Shown in pieces: positions 4,606-43,946 of a stretch of DNA of 43,946 nucleotides. Both the position numbers and the translations under genes were made by a program. Numbering within the stretch: the stretch's first letter is position 1; every line of letters starts with the position of its first letter. Source of the stretch: a virus (Duplodnaviria > Heunggongvirae > Uroviricota > Caudoviricetes); IMG/VR virus record IMGVR_UViG_3300045988_019467; one strand, 5' to 3'. The notes under the pieces are model-generated. The model worked only from the letters and a program-made list of their open reading frames with translations, made no database searches and was not told where the DNA came from.

Positions 4606-4608
4606 TAT

Positions 4609-4629
4609 AAGGCCCCTTAACGGGGCCTT
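4609..4629. terminator. bidirectional intrinsic terminator hairpin (AAGGCCCC-TTAAC-GGGGCCTT)
   Basis: GC stem followed by TTAGTTTTATTT; between convergent genes 4147..4605 (+) and 4634..5155 (-); same stem sequence as 2655, 12429 and 24233. Confidence 0.6.
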
Positions 4630-4633
4630 AGTT

Positions 4634-5487: not shown

Positions 5488-5512
5488 GCCCCGCTTTAAG
5501 GCGGGGCTTTAC
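5488..5512 (+). terminator. intrinsic terminator or attenuator hairpin just upstream of the spanin genes
   Basis: GCCCCGC-TTTAAG-GCGGGGC stem-loop followed by TTTACTT; lies 20 nt before the i-spanin RBS. Confidence 0.4.
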
Positions 5513-7863: not shown

Positions 7864-7879
7864 GGTTAAGCTATAATCG

Positions 7880-7907
7880 AGAGGGACTTCGGTCCCTCTT
7901 TTCATTT
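7880..7907 (+). terminator. intrinsic terminator after the capsid gene
   Basis: AGAGGGAC-TTCG-GTCCCTCT stem-loop followed by TTTCATTT. Confidence 0.55.
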
Positions 7908-12428: not shown

Positions 12429-12454
12429 AAGGCCCCGAAAGGGGCCTTTTTCTT
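12429..12454. terminator. bidirectional intrinsic terminator (AAGGCCCC-GAAA-GGGGCCTT + TTTTTCTT)
   Basis: 20-mer identical to 2655..2674 followed by a T-run; separates the tail tube gene from the convergent moron operon. Confidence 0.65.
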
Positions 12455-12629
12455 ACTCACTTTTGAATGCCATTTCGTAGAAGTTAGTTAACTGACCTCT
12501 GTCACTCCGTTCTGTCATCTCTTTTGCGGCCTCTTCCTTGCTACCTACGGCGTAAATATCAACCCACTCATCCCATTCTTCGTCATATACGCGGATAACG
12601 TATATTGTTCCCATTGTGCCTTCACGCAT
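12453..12629 (-). CDS. hypothetical small acidic protein (last gene of moron operon; start uncertain)
   Basis: ORF in frame to 12659; start placed at the internal ATG 12629 to limit overlap with the upstream gene. Confidence 0.35.
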   Translation of the reverse strand: MREGTMGTIYVIRVYDEEWDEWVDIYAVGSKEEAAKEMTERSDRGQLTNFYEMAFKSE

Positions 12630-13191
12630 TTGGGTAAATCCCCAGGATTCTATTAGCAATCGCGGCCGCTGTTAATGTAATCTCGCCTGGGATGACCACA
12701 ACGTCATGACATACCGCACCATCAATACCGTACAGGTAACCACGACTATCCCCGTCAAACGTATAGCCGTCTCTGCGCAAGCGAACGATTTTTACGTCAT
12801 GCCCTGCGGCGACGATAGGGGACACTTCACTGGCGAATCCACCGTCTGACACTACAAAAACGTCATCGCCGTCGGGCAAGTTTTCAGCAAGATACTTACC
12901 GAAATAATCGCCGCCGAGAACCGGTTTAATGAATTGCTCAGAAATGGCAATCATGAACTGACGACGAGACAAACCATTAAGGAAACCCTCTGGCTTTTCT
13001 TTCCGCGCCCGGTCGTCGTAGCCGTCGAGAAACTCGTGGTACGCATCCGGACCTAACGCTGCCAGAGCAATATTGAACATTGGATTTTTGAAACTGGTAG
13101 CACCCTTCGCAAAGCCCATTTCTACCAGCGCCATAGCAAGTGTGTCTTTCCCACAACCCGCCGGGCCATTAAGAATAATTACCTTAGCCAT
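12622..13191 (-). CDS. P-loop kinase (dNMP kinase-like or polynucleotide 5'-kinase-like)
   Basis: N-terminal Walker A GPAGCGKDT resembling phage dNMP kinase and PNK P-loops; translationally coupled to the upstream HAD gene. Confidence 0.55.
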   Translation of the reverse strand: MAKVIILNGPAGCGKDTLAMALVEMGFAKGATSFKNPMFNIALAALGPDAYHEFLDGYDDRARKEKPEGFLNGLSRRQFMIAISEQFIKPVLGGDYFGKYLAENLPDGDDVFVVSDGGFASEVSPIVAAGHDVKIVRLRRDGYTFDGDSRGYLYGIDGAVCHDVVVIPGEITLTAAAIANRILGIYPNA

Positions 13192-13676
13192 TATTTATCG
13201 CTCCCGTGTGATTTTAAGTGTGTAGAATTCCCGTTACAGTCGTATTCAGTAACCGCGTGAGTGGTTATACCGAGTCCGCGGAAATGCTTTATTACCGCCG
13301 GAGAGTCGTCGAATGCGCACAATATTCTTTCCAGCCCGATAGCACGTAACACCTCTTCTTTAATTACGATGTCTTTTCTGTTGTCGTGTTTGCTGCGCAT
13401 GATTAACTGATAAAATTCGACGCGGTGGCGCTGCAACCACATTCTGGTTTCTTTTTCTGCATCATCACTGCGACCAGTTAAAATAATAACGGCGTAGCGA
13501 CGATTAAGGGCGTTACACAGTTCGATGTTATCTCTAATTGGTTCATCATCTTTGCACGCCATGTTAAAGGGTTTCCACGCCCATGTTTCGTTGTAGTTAT
13601 CTTTCGGCAGCAGGTGTAAACGATGTGTACCATCTGCCAATGTTCCATCTAAATCGAAAATTACAATATCTTTCAT
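13191..13676 (-). CDS. HAD-superfamily phosphatase (T4 Pnkp phosphatase-like motif I)
   Basis: N-terminal IVIFDLDGTL (DxDGT catalytic motif I of HAD phosphatases, as in the T4 Pnkp 3'-phosphatase domain). Confidence 0.6.
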   Translation of the reverse strand: MKDIVIFDLDGTLADGTHRLHLLPKDNYNETWAWKPFNMACKDDEPIRDNIELCNALNRRYAVIILTGRSDDAEKETRMWLQRHRVEFYQLIMRSKHDNRKDIVIKEEVLRAIGLERILCAFDDSPAVIKHFRGLGITTHAVTEYDCNGNSTHLKSHGSDK

Positions 13677-14803
13677 CCCAGCATCTCCGGTGAAATAGTT
13701 AAACGTGCGACCTCGCCGTATTCGGCGCTATAAGTAATTACATTTGCACTGCGTCCTGACATCCATCCGCCGCGAGAGGCGTAGGCGTCTTTCGCCGCTA
13801 AGGTGCGGTGTTGCTCAACAATCATGTTACGGCTTTCTACAATCTTCTGGTGGTGCAGGTGGCCTACGTGGGCGTAGCTGTACACGCTTTCGCCAAATGC
13901 TTTGCGGAACTTGGCAATCATAACCGGTTCGATAGCGTCGAATCGTGCTTTATGCCCGTGGTGAAAGAACAACGTCGTTTTGCCGTGTTGCACCATCTTG
14001 TAAACATCCGGCGACGTATCGACGAACACACGCGGCTCATTGTCGTACAGCGTGTTGAACATCTCAGCCAGCCAAATCATACCCGATTCGTCGTGGTTCC
14101 CTTGCACGATAAGCAAGCGAACGGTTTTATGTTTAACAAGCGCCATATCAACAACACGGCGCACCATACGAATCATGTAGCGAACCAGTTTCTGATAGCG
14201 AGTATCGGCGTCCAACACATGGCGCGACTCAGGTGTAACGGCGTCCAGGCTATCGAAGTGAGCAAAGTCACCCAGCAGGTTAATAACCCCGGTTCCCGCA
14301 TCTGGTGCTTTCTGAAACGCCGCATCGAACCAGCGAGAAAACAGGTCTTCCGCAATCTTCATATCCCAGTCGTCGCCGCTCTCGTCAGCCCAGGCCAGCA
14401 TACCGAGATGGAAATCAGATACCGTGTAAAGATTGAGCAGCTTGTCGTCGCGTTTGGTGCGGGCGGCTTTAACAGGCGCAACTGGAGTAATCTCTGACTT
14501 CATGCCCTCGATTACGGCTTTCATCAATTCGACCTGACGTTCGGCATCGGTATCGGTCTTAACCCATTGCAACTTAGTGTTGCCGAACTCGTCCACAAGT
14601 GACGATGTTCCTTTAATCTTGTAGCCGTCCGGCACAAGGTGGCTAACGTCACGCCCATGACCCACGCCTTTCTTCGCCAGCTTCGCTTTACGGATACGAA
14701 TAACGCGGTCTGAGATTCCGTACTTACGTGCGATATCAATAATCTTCATTCCGGCGTTCAATTCTTCCTGTAACTGTTCGTCGGTTATTTTCTTCTGGGC
14801 CAT
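13673..14803 (-). CDS. calcineurin-like metallophosphoesterase with N-terminal HTH domain
   Basis: MPE motifs D-x-H (VSDFHLG), GDxxH (LLGDFAHFD), GNHD (VQGNHDES), HHGH and GHLHH; N-terminal HTH-like segment (IARKYGISDRVIRIRKA); start at ATG 14803 with RBS GAGGAAG. Confidence 0.6.
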   Translation of the reverse strand: MAQKKITDEQLQEELNAGMKIIDIARKYGISDRVIRIRKAKLAKKGVGHGRDVSHLVPDGYKIKGTSSLVDEFGNTKLQWVKTDTDAERQVELMKAVIEGMKSEITPVAPVKAARTKRDDKLLNLYTVSDFHLGMLAWADESGDDWDMKIAEDLFSRWFDAAFQKAPDAGTGVINLLGDFAHFDSLDAVTPESRHVLDADTRYQKLVRYMIRMVRRVVDMALVKHKTVRLLIVQGNHDESGMIWLAEMFNTLYDNEPRVFVDTSPDVYKMVQHGKTTLFFHHGHKARFDAIEPVMIAKFRKAFGESVYSYAHVGHLHHQKIVESRNMIVEQHRTLAAKDAYASRGGWMSGRSANVITYSAEYGEVARLTISPEMLG

Positions 14804-14841
14804 GCTTACTTCCTCGTGTTTAGGATTTGTCTTATAGTAGC

Positions 14842-15033
14842 TTACTTCTCTTTCACGTTCGAGTTGCAAGCCCAGATTAAAATAAATACCCACGGCAGCA
14901 GAACCCAACCAAGAAACAGGTTAGCCATGAATATAGCTAACTTCGCTTTATGGTTACGGAAGTACGCAACCAGGAAAGGTGCGAAATAAGCGAGCAGTGC
15001 AAACAGAATTAAGGAAACTGGTAAACTGGACAT
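14842..15033 (-). CDS. small membrane protein (two predicted TM helices), first gene of moron operon
   Basis: Hydrophobic 63-aa ORF; start taken at ATG 15033 preceded by AAGGGG (an upstream ATG at 15048 is also possible). Confidence 0.4.
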   Translation of the reverse strand: MSSLPVSLILFALLAYFAPFLVAYFRNHKAKLAIFMANLFLGWVLLPWVFILIWACNSNVKEK

Positions 15034-15060
15034 TTTAAACCCCTTCATTGTTGGTGTAAG

Positions 15061-15092: not shown

Positions 15093-15199
15093 GTAATATG
15101 GTAGAATAATTTTGCGCCTAGTGTCGCACACGAAAAGCGGGTGGTTCCCGTCTGGCGCATTTCCTTTAACCAGTAACCTCTTAACCAAAGGATTAAAGA

Positions 15200-15616
15200 A
15201 TGAAACTTTCTGATTTTTATTACGAAGCTGAAGCCGAAAAGGGTGCGCGTATGCCGATACCGTTAAAAGACGGTACCGATTCTGGGGAATGGCTTAATGT
15301 TGTTTCTCCTGAGGCAGACGTTGCCGTTAAGGCTATGCGCGCGTTCACCCTTGCATACCGGGCAGTGTTAGGGAAATTAAAACCGCTTCGTGATAAGTGC
15401 GAAGAGATGAAAGATTTCTCTGAATACAACCTGAAGATGGAAGATGCGGCCACGGACCTTAACCGACAGTTAGCAATTGAATTGATTAACGGGTGGAGCC
15501 TGGACGACGAATTCAATAAAGAGAATCTGAACACACTCCTGACGCAATATAAACGACTCGCGGAACTTGTTGTTGTGTTTCATAACGAACAACTGCGCCA
15601 GTTACAGGAAAAGTAG
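15200..15616 (+). CDS. tail assembly chaperone (gpG-like, putative)
   Basis: 138-aa acidic ORF immediately upstream of the tape measure gene; a -1 frame ORF overlaps its end. Confidence 0.5.
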   Translation: MKLSDFYYEAEAEKGARMPIPLKDGTDSGEWLNVVSPEADVAVKAMRAFTLAYRAVLGKLKPLRDKCEEMKDFSEYNLKMEDAATDLNRQLAIELINGWSLDDEFNKENLNTLLTQYKRLAELVVVFHNEQLRQLQEK

Positions 15617-38466: not shown

Positions 38467-38635
38467 CCGCACCTTTATTTTGAGAGAAGCGTTCGAACGG
38501 TGGGCCGTCGTTGAGGGTCTGCCGGTTAACAAGGGTTCAAAGAAAGAGTACCTGAACGTTAAGACGCGTCTCGCGTGGCGGGCGTGGAAAGCTGGTGTGC
38601 AATCCTTGATTGAAAGAGGTGTGAGATATGGGTAA
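38459..38635 (+). CDS. hypothetical small protein
   Basis: 58-aa ORF overlapping both neighbours at start and stop. Confidence 0.3.
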   Translation: MNSRTFILREAFERWAVVEGLPVNKGSKKEYLNVKTRLAWRAWKAGVQSLIERGVRYG

Positions 38636-41324: not shown

Positions 41325-41353
41325 GTTGACTAATACCATCGACCCTATTATAT
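41325..41353 (+). promoter_or_regulatory. sigma70-like promoter (TTGACT-17-TATATT) containing the CCCTATTATATT half-motif
   Basis: TTGACT at 41325..41330 and TATATT at 41348..41353; shares CCCTATTATATT with the class-1 elements. Confidence 0.4.
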
Positions 41354-41387
41354 TTACTCCATCGACAACGAGAACGGAGTAGAGAAG

Positions 41388-42568: not shown

Positions 42569-42738
42569 TGTTCAGTGACATTAACGCGGCAATCGAAGAA
42601 GCAATCTGGCGGCGCTACAACGGCGAGCAGCAGCGGCACTTCTGCCTCGTACAACGAGGTAACATGATTGCCGTAGTGCAGGACCGCGATAACAAATATC
42701 CGAATGCGATGTGGACAACGAGGAATTTCTTAGGATGA
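42568..42738 (+). CDS. hypothetical small protein
   Basis: 56-aa ORF coupled to its neighbours. Confidence 0.3.
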   Translation: MFSDINAAIEEAIWRRYNGEQQRHFCLVQRGNMIAVVQDRDNKYPNAMWTTRNFLG

Positions 42739-42971
42739 TTACCAGCATTCCGAACCTGATTAAAGAATACGGCACGATGGCTGAGACATGCCGACAAACC
42801 GGCATCAATGAAATGACTATTGCGAAGTACAGCAAAGACGTTGATTGCGAACGCCACGTAATTTATAACAACCGTCTGATGACGCACGTTAAGACAAGCC
42901 CGGTGTTATTCACGCGCCGGGGTATCACTAAAACTGAGCAACGTATTGCTAAAGAGGAGAGTGGGAAATGA
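42735..42971 (+). CDS. hypothetical small protein
   Basis: ATGA overlap; 78-aa ORF. Confidence 0.35.
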   Translation: MITSIPNLIKEYGTMAETCRQTGINEMTIAKYSKDVDCERHVIYNNRLMTHVKTSPVLFTRRGITKTEQRIAKEESGK

Positions 42972-43117: not shown

Positions 43118-43127
43118 CCAACCAACA

Positions 43128-43151
43128 AGCCCTCTACGGAGGGCTTTTCTG
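43128..43151 (+). terminator. intrinsic terminator (AGCCCTC-TACG-GAGGGCT + TTTCTG)
   Basis: 7-bp GC-rich stem followed by a T-rich tract; separates the small-gene block from the terminase genes. Confidence 0.55.
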
Positions 43152-43173
43152 TACATCCCGCCCAATCCCCTTA

Positions 43174-43204
43174 TATAATCCCTTTAGACGCGTAGGGCGC
43201 GTCT
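43174..43204 (+). promoter_or_regulatory. TATAAT box followed by inverted repeat AGACGCG-N5-CGCGTCT upstream of terS
   Basis: TATAAT at 43174..43179 with no good -35; perfect 7-bp inverted repeat at 43186..43204; AGACGC recurs at 43222. Confidence 0.3.
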
Positions 43205-43244
43205 GGTGCGCTCTGATGGTCAGACGCATATGCAAGGGGATTCT

Positions 43245-43757
43245 ATGAAGCTGAAACTTAAGCAGCCATCGCCAGAGGTGGTGCAAGCTGCACATGAAGA
43301 AGCTGTTAGCGCAAACCGTCGCCGTAAACGGCCGCGCGGTAAACAGAGCCTTTATCAATCATCCCGTAATTCCGCTGCGTTGTGGGACCCGGACTATTGC
43401 GACGAATTAATCGAGTTCTTCGACAGAACGTCGTGGGAGCTTGTGCCCACATCTAAGGGTGATGAACGCCCGCTGATTCAGGATAAACCACCGTCACTGG
43501 CTCGCTTTGCCTTACACATCGGCGTCACTATCCCGATTATTAAGCTGTGGCTGCGCGAGATTCCTGCATTTGCAGAAGCATACGAAACGGCGCTGGCGCT
43601 GGAAGAGGCGTACTTCACTGAGACAGGGGCTGCAGGTATCTCTGCTACGTTTGCTGCTGCTAAACTGGGACTGAATAAGAAAGAAGAATCGACTGGCGAG
43701 GGTTCTGAACCTATAGAGATTCGTTTCGTTAAGGCTGTTAAACCGGAGGGCGAGTAA
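43245..43757 (+). CDS. terS: terminase small subunit (putative)
   Basis: 170-aa ORF immediately upstream of and translationally coupled (TAATG) to the Walker-A-bearing terL; basic N-terminal region; start at ATG 43245 with RBS AAGGGGA. Confidence 0.55.
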   Translation: MKLKLKQPSPEVVQAAHEEAVSANRRRKRPRGKQSLYQSSRNSAALWDPDYCDELIEFFDRTSWELVPTSKGDERPLIQDKPPSLARFALHIGVTIPIIKLWLREIPAFAEAYETALALEEAYFTETGAAGISATFAAAKLGLNKKEESTGEGSEPIEIRFVKAVKPEGE

Positions 43758-43946
43758 TGGATATCCCATTAACAGAACCCCAACAGGATTTTGTATTCAG
43801 TACAAAGACACATCCAGCTATTGTCGCGGGACTGGGGGCAGGCAAGTCCCGCGCGGCCACTATGCGTCTCCTGTATCTCATGTTGCGCGAGCGCGGGATA
43901 AACACCCTATACACCATGCCTACGTATGACCTGTTGAAGCTGCGCG
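43757..43946 (+). CDS. terL: terminase large subunit, N-terminal part (continues at window start)
   Basis: ATG 43757 overlapping the terS stop; Walker A GLGAGKS; frame continues into 1..1145 through the duplicated 99 bp. Confidence 0.8.
   Translation, partial: MDIPLTEPQQDFVFSTKTHPAIVAGLGAGKSRAATMRLLYLMLRERGINTLYTMPTYDLLKLR
43848..43946. repeat. 99-bp exact duplicate of window bases 1..99 (circular-closure overlap)
   Basis: Direct comparison: the last 99 nt equal the first 99 nt, and the duplication lies inside the terL coding sequence. Confidence 0.9.

Follow-up and report, generated by a model that had tools for sequence, protein, structure and literature searches.

The window (the whole 43,946-nt stretch of viral DNA analysed here) is a circular Kagunavirus-like genome. 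Positions 1-99 are an exact repeat of 43848-43946 (99 nt), and the assembly is therefore circular, with a unique genome of 43,847 bp; the last 1 kb is ~90% identical to Escherichia and Salmonella siphophages of Kagunavirus and Jerseyvirus (Guernseyvirinae). Near this end, on the plus strand, lies the small terminase gene terS (43245-43757, 170 aa; phrog_3064, E = 1.7e-71), whose stop codon overlaps the start of the large terminase gene terL in the sequence TAATG. The 5' part of terL occupies 43757-43946 (+) and, given that 1-99 duplicates 43848-43946, the gene resumes at 100-1145. The N-terminal region of TerS contains an arginine-rich stretch, ANRRRKRPRGKQ, at residues ~20-35 (within 43245-43400), and basic N-termini are also found in other TerS lineages. 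Upstream of terS is an operon of small genes, driven by a predicted sigma-70-type promoter at 41326-41354 and ended by a terminator-like hairpin at 43127. A NinH-like helix-turn-helix protein (42711-42971, +; Pfam PF06322, E = 1e-5, below the curated cut-off) is encoded two genes 5' of the leader described below, and a gene for a 'transcriptional regulator' occupies the equivalent spot in Cornellvirus.

The initial annotation had seen, immediately 5' of terS, a TATAAT box without a convincing -35, a perfect inverted repeat and a third copy of AGACGC, and had put these forward as a candidate packaging initiation (pac) site or late-gene activator site. The TATAAT box is indeed present (43174-43179), and a promoter scan that scored the -35/-10 pair against 12 consensus positions joins it, over an 18-nt spacer, to a -35-like TGTACA at 43150-43155 with a score of 10/12, so that a sigma-70-type promoter with a predicted +1 spans 43150-43179 (+). 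Just 5' of this promoter is the hairpin that ends the upstream operon, which the initial annotation had overlooked: it resembles an intrinsic terminator (AAGCCCTC TACG GAGGGCTT plus a T-rich tail, 43127-43153, +), the hairpin proper being 43127-43146. The perfect inverted repeat is as described (AGACGCG at 43186-43192, TAGGG at 43193-43197, CGCGTCT at 43198-43204) and in RNA would form hairpin 1 (43186-43204, +), with eight pairs (AGACGCGU/GCGCGUCU) and an AGG triloop (43194-43196), beginning at the predicted +1. The third AGACGC is also there, at 43222-43227, but it does not stand alone as a direct repeat: it forms the 3' arm of another inverted repeat, this one imperfect (GTGCG-C-TCTGA TGG TCAGA CGCAT, 43206-43229), that had likewise escaped notice. 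The corresponding hairpin 2 (43206-43229, +) has a lower stem GUGCG/CGCAU, an upper stem UCUGA/UCAGA, a bulged C at 43211 and a UGG triloop (43217-43219) closed by an A-U pair, and is separated from hairpin 1 by a single unpaired G (43205). With 15 nt between its end and the terS ATG, the element adjoins the small terminase gene; this interval holds a Shine-Dalgarno sequence, AAGGGG (43234-43239), 5 nt from the ATG at 43245.

By sequence alone the repeats are weakly unusual, barely above chance. Perfect 7-nt inverted repeats with 3-8 nt loops number 42 in the genome against ~15 in shuffles, and three AGACGC/GCGTCT hexamers fall within 45 nt in 3.4% of random placements; the weight of the repeats comes from conservation and covariation rather than from sequence alone. 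Genome-wide the hexamer occurs 41 times against 25.6 expected, a count as high as in none of 100 shuffles. No further copy of the element was found elsewhere in the genome (one per genome): a 10-nt palindrome that belongs to these hexamer occurrences and was considered as a second copy (AGACGCGTCT, 38562-38571) falls within an ORF, and degenerate matches are at chance level. No curated covariance model of Rfam 15 matched 43174-43250, even at E <= 10, and the lone match in a gathering-score scan of the window lies outside the element. The predicted leader folds at -23 kcal/mol and is the sole strongly structured one among the promoter leaders of the genome, the others lying between -3 and -14 kcal/mol.

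Two other sets of leaders in this genome deserve mention. Three near-identical promoters, close to consensus, on the minus strand (TTGACACC...CTATTATAGT, 11/12; 34228-34199, 31242-31214 and 27662-27634) head replication genes, and their leaders, unlike that of terS, are unstructured. A match to the int-alpA RNA (Rfam RF02996, 36.6 bits against a gathering score of 35.8) at 15111-15175 (+) lies directly 5' of a plus-strand gene at 15200-15616, with which the plus-strand structural block restarts past a minus-strand island (12622-15048); this match may be a second structured leader in the genome.

Regions 5' of terS were gathered from IMG/VR contigs and GenBank phages, and in ten lineages they share a common layout: terminator, promoter, hairpin 1, 0-2 nt, hairpin 2, Shine-Dalgarno sequence, terS ATG. 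The lineages are Kagunavirus, Jerseyvirus, the phiEap-2 group, Cornellvirus, the Klebsiella VLCpiS11a group, an IMG/VR lineage (L055, L098, L099), Dhillonvirus, a divergent Dhillonvirus (L086), Edwardsiella phage eiAU-183 (L216) and a contig related to Pantoea phage AH01 (L218). A counterpart of the terminator hairpin was present in all nine lineages whose upstream sequence was inspected. The -10 box of the relatives is TATAAT or TACAAT, in some with TTGCCT-17 as the -35, and in Dhillonvirus it is an extended -10 (TGnTATAAT); in every lineage 7-10 nt separate the -10 box from the start of hairpin 1. Among distant lineages the stem sequences are almost wholly different while pairing is kept, as in the arms of hairpin 1, which are AGACGCG/CGCGTCT here, GTGGCC/GGCCGC in VLCpiS11a, AGGTGG/CCACCT in the divergent Dhillonvirus and GGCGGGCC/GGTCCGCC in eiAU-183. 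The latter phage and the Pantoea-like contig retain both hairpins and their triloops on entirely different stems. The triloop of hairpin 1 is AGG or UGG with a Y-G closing pair in all lineages, and that of hairpin 2 is UGG with an A-U closing pair, a lone isolate having UGA. The two-hairpin element is absent from the more distant TerS relatives L056-L067 and L166-L184. Two of these, L056 and L057, have another leader (TATAAT, a GC hairpin with a U-run, GGAG, ATG), which looks like a promoter-proximal attenuator.

A model-based alignment of 35 distinct sequences was compared with 500 shuffles and with slid alignments as controls. Paired cells made up 89.7% of the total against 79.3% in shuffles, cells with both sides changed numbered 56 against 18.6, and the covariation score was 0.363 against 0.193; none of the 500 shuffles matched the observed pairing, double-change or covariation values, a comparison that overstates independence because the lineages are related, and the slid controls were far lower. 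Both MAFFT and the model shift hairpin 1 of Dhillonvirus by one pair and thereby inflate the 'not paired' cells, and alignment by hand eliminates these misregistered cells. When 11 representatives were aligned by hand on structure, all stem positions were Watson-Crick or G.U, bar one C.C; the non-Watson-Crick pairs, all but one, are thus G.U on the terS sense strand, and would read as A.C mismatches on the opposite strand. RNAalifold recovered both hairpins unaided, with compensatory changes in 8 of 14 pairs, and nine representatives folded singly gave an identical three-way junction. Compensated arms, invariant loop centres and sense-strand G.U pairs together argue for RNA rather than a double-stranded DNA site: as judged from the aligned sequences, the substitution pattern indicates sense-strand RNA structure and does not fit a protein site on double-stranded DNA. 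Plus-strand single-stranded DNA, in place of sense-strand RNA, is less likely.

The junction is closed by a third helix. The Shine-Dalgarno region AAGGGGATT (AAGGGG plus ATT, 43234-43242, +) is complementary both to an anti-Shine-Dalgarno arm, AATCCCTTT (43177-43185, +), which overlaps the end of the -10 box and the discriminator, and to an upstream copy of that arm in the promoter spacer, AATCCCCTT (43164-43172, +), its perfect complement. In most lineages an outer stem between the -10/discriminator segment and the Shine-Dalgarno region, the latter as its 3' arm, closes the three-way junction, by different pairs in each: CAAUCCU/AGGAUUG in Jerseyvirus, GAACCU/AGGUUC in L055, AACCUC/GAGGUU in L099, UAAUCACCUG/CAGGAGAUUA in phiEap-2 and UAUAAUCCC/GGGGGUUAUA in VLCpiS11a. 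The sister sequences L098 and L099 have the same Shine-Dalgarno sequence in different pairing registers. The outer stem was found in the minimum-energy fold of 9/9 representatives and was better than shuffles (p <= 0.04) in 8/9; it was not significant against shuffles in the divergent Dhillonvirus and does not form in the minimum-energy fold of eiAU-183. Since it is weak or absent in these two, occlusion of the Shine-Dalgarno sequence cannot be the universal function, and the outer stem is accessory, the two hairpins being the invariant core. The anti-Shine-Dalgarno arm lies 5' of the predicted +1 and would therefore be included only in transcripts reading in from upstream.

The explanation that we favour, and consider probable, is that these repeats specify a structured leader RNA at the 5' end of the message for terS and its downstream genes. 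Situated between a promoter and the gene that opens the packaging/structural block, it would be a conserved, previously undescribed cis-regulatory mRNA leader, which is more likely than a DNA packaging site. Transcripts from the leader's own promoter would start 0-3 nt before hairpin 1; being free of the anti-Shine-Dalgarno arm, they would leave terS translatable, and their double-stranded 5' end should shield the long late mRNA from 5'-end-dependent decay. Where transcription reads through the upstream terminator, the arm would be included, the junction would fold and terS would be silent, much as T4 gene e. The invariant GG loops would imply a further sequence-specific partner, for which RNA polymerase, the ribosome and proteins of the phage or the host are candidates; what points to such a partner is that the triloops are invariant while the stems vary freely. 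The promoter has a perfect -10 box, which leaves 'late' timing without an obvious cause. In the literature we found no transcription-start data for these phages, and one transcriptome paper without 5'-end resolution.

Parts of this proposed leader recall known systems. A hairpin at the 5' end, as in the Escherichia coli ompA leader, guards an mRNA from 5'-end-dependent attack by RNase E and RppH, and the hairpin here, beginning 0-3 nt from the predicted 5' end, may be analogous. Stabiliser hairpins have no loop-sequence requirement, however, whereas both triloops here are invariant across ten lineages, and a simple stabiliser does not explain them. For T4 e, soc, 49 and I-TevI, longer upstream transcripts are silent and transcripts from the gene's own promoter are translated, and in these leaders, as predicted here, the Shine-Dalgarno sequence pairs with an upstream segment that overlaps the gene's own promoter (PMC3014915). 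Escape of this type through an own promoter would here depend on a promoter that is predicted by consensus and conserved. The differences are several: T4 has a late promoter (TATAAATA, with gp55) where this siphophage has one of sigma-70 type; the simple T4 hairpin corresponds to a three-way junction enclosing two further conserved hairpins; the gene here is terS, at the head of a structural block; there is no sequence homology; and two lineages here have a weak occluding helix or none. T4-type occlusion is thus an analogue, not a homologue.

The invariant loops could also be accounted for if the 5' hairpins were a cis antiterminator, binding the elongating RNA polymerase directly, as HK022 put does at the zinc-binding domain of the beta' subunit, or recruiting a factor as in lambda N/boxB, by which transcription from the terS promoter would pass the terminators within the structural block. 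We consider this doubtful, and it could coexist with the structured-leader explanation. In put RNA, roughly one unpaired nucleotide lies between two stem-loops close to the start of a long phage transcript that contains terminators; the two stem-loops here, 0-2 nt apart at the predicted 5' end of the transcript, match the gross layout of putL (PMC9378689). Loops that are invariant on stems free to change suggest specific recognition, and the plus-strand block headed by terS contains strong terminator-like hairpins, GC-rich with T-rich tails, between genes (2655-2674, 4608-4630, 5488-5507, 7879-7900 and 12429-12448, all +) and no good internal promoter. The hairpins at 2655 and 12429 have a common sequence, AAGGCCCCGAAAGGGGCCTT, and are terminator-like on both strands. 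Against the proposal, late operons commonly hold terminator-like hairpins without antitermination, no antiterminator gene was identified, and the element is 44 nt of simple stems where put is ~73 nt with a triplex and multiple bulges. The motifs common to putL and putR (CGAACGG, GUCGGG and AAGGAUGA) are absent from the element, and the covariance model found no match in HK022 at E <= 10. Homology to put was accordingly rejected, the likeness of AGACG/CGUCU to putL not being common to putR. In HK022 (L104), putL (28312-28235, minus strand) opens with AUAGACG...CGUCU, five base pairs identical to the outer part of hairpin 1 at the equivalent position relative to the promoter; given that putR lacks it, the match is probably a coincidence.

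Lambda nut is similar in that its promoter-proximal leader carries a short hairpin whose loop is conserved and rich in purines, but the order of boxA and boxB would be reversed here and no N-like gene was identified. The boxA consensus is CGCUCUUA, which the Kagunavirus sequence CGCUCUGA resembles; the latter is not conserved in other lineages, and boxA was set aside as a component of the leader. RfaH ops and CsrA GGA motifs, compared by eye with the leader as consensus sequences, did not fit. That the (A/U)GG and UGG hairpins constitute a new class of cis RNA making the late operon terminator-resistant is unlikely in our estimation; if true, they would represent a compact, put-like device for processive antitermination, widespread in virulent siphophages of Enterobacterales.

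The packaging site proposed in the initial annotation, where TerS would recognise the DNA in double-stranded form and headful packaging would make its first cut at or close to the repeats, now seems improbable. The proposal has precedent in that the pac sites of P22, SPP1, Sf6 and P1 lie next to or within terS and consist of short repeated motifs; the phages related to the one analysed here also package by headful, and the repeats are clustered. The pac sites of P22, SPP1, Sf6 and P1 are, however, read as double-stranded DNA by the cognate TerS, whereas the leader here covaries as an RNA would, and its changes do not follow the divergence of TerS. The substitutions preserve a strand-specific pairing for which a double-stranded DNA site has no need, with compensated arms, fixed loops and sense-strand G.U pairs. 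Compared with the phiEap-2, Cornellvirus, VLCpiS11a, lineage X and Dhillonvirus groups, this phage has a leader that is 62-76% identical, whereas identity is only 27-31% for TerS and ~53-56% for the terS gene, and the N-terminal regions of TerS are unalignable. A pac site read by the DNA-binding region of TerS would be expected to change as that region is replaced, and the leader stays nearly constant. Published PhageTerm runs gave random ends for one Jerseyvirus, 'P1-like headful' without a coordinate for another and no termini for a Kagunavirus, and we found no pac mapping in the literature for Kagunavirus, Jerseyvirus or Dhillonvirus. The starts of database records were rejected as a proxy for pac: the inspected records with starts near this site begin at, or ~10 nt before, a terS start codon called by gene finders. 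Inverted repeats beside terS should not be equated with pac sites absent comparative evidence.

Still less probable is a palindromic operator for a dimeric regulator, either a repressor acting at +1 to +44 or a late activator, with the NinH-like protein (42711-42971) as the candidate binder. Two palindromes do lie directly 3' of the -10 box, and the NinH-like gene two genes upstream has its 'transcriptional regulator' counterpart at the equivalent site in Cornellvirus. An operator would be expected to have conserved half-sites, a free centre and two-strand symmetry; what we find is the reverse, with arms that vary and covary, invariant centres, asymmetries that are G.U on one strand only, and a bulge in hairpin 2. 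Dhillonvirus keeps the element with a phosphoesterase gene upstream and no adjacent regulator, and no second copy was found in the genome. The suggestion of a late-regulatory site thus holds in the broad sense of a strongly conserved element between a promoter and the packaging/structural block, but not, by the substitution pattern, in the sense of a double-stranded DNA site for an activator.

That the repeats are simply codons, with terS starting at GTG 43206 as in many GenBank records, is scarcely credible. Kagunavirus, Jerseyvirus, phiEap-2 and Cornellvirus do have an open frame over 43206-43245, and several database records begin at the equivalent of this start. But between Kagunavirus and Jerseyvirus the 13 codons 5' of 43245 have 7 non-synonymous changes and no synonymous one, whereas the first 40 codons of terS have 16 synonymous and 4 non-synonymous changes (the pattern on which we rejected a coding reading from 43206), two key substitutions are complementary to each other, lineage X has a stop codon in frame, VLCpiS11a has no start codon at the base of hairpin 2, and a strong Shine-Dalgarno sequence precedes the equivalent of 43245 in all lineages. 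The true start of terS, as predicted from this comparison, is ATG 43245 rather than GTG 43206. The gene is widely annotated from a GTG or ATG 39 nt upstream, several records having been cut to begin there, and in Dhillonvirus an upstream ATG (MNKRAYIM...) is annotated likewise as the terS start. Reading this segment as a leader would correct a widespread misannotation of the terS start codon.

Little is known of how packaging and structural genes are timed in virulent siphophages that have neither their own RNA polymerase nor a known late activator. The structured leader proposed here, compact (~75 nt) and experimentally tractable, heads that block in several hundred sequenced phages, and many of the phages that carry it are candidates for therapy. 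It is a candidate for a new RNA family, and if the partner of its invariant loops is RNA polymerase or a dedicated protein, it would represent a new regulatory mechanism.
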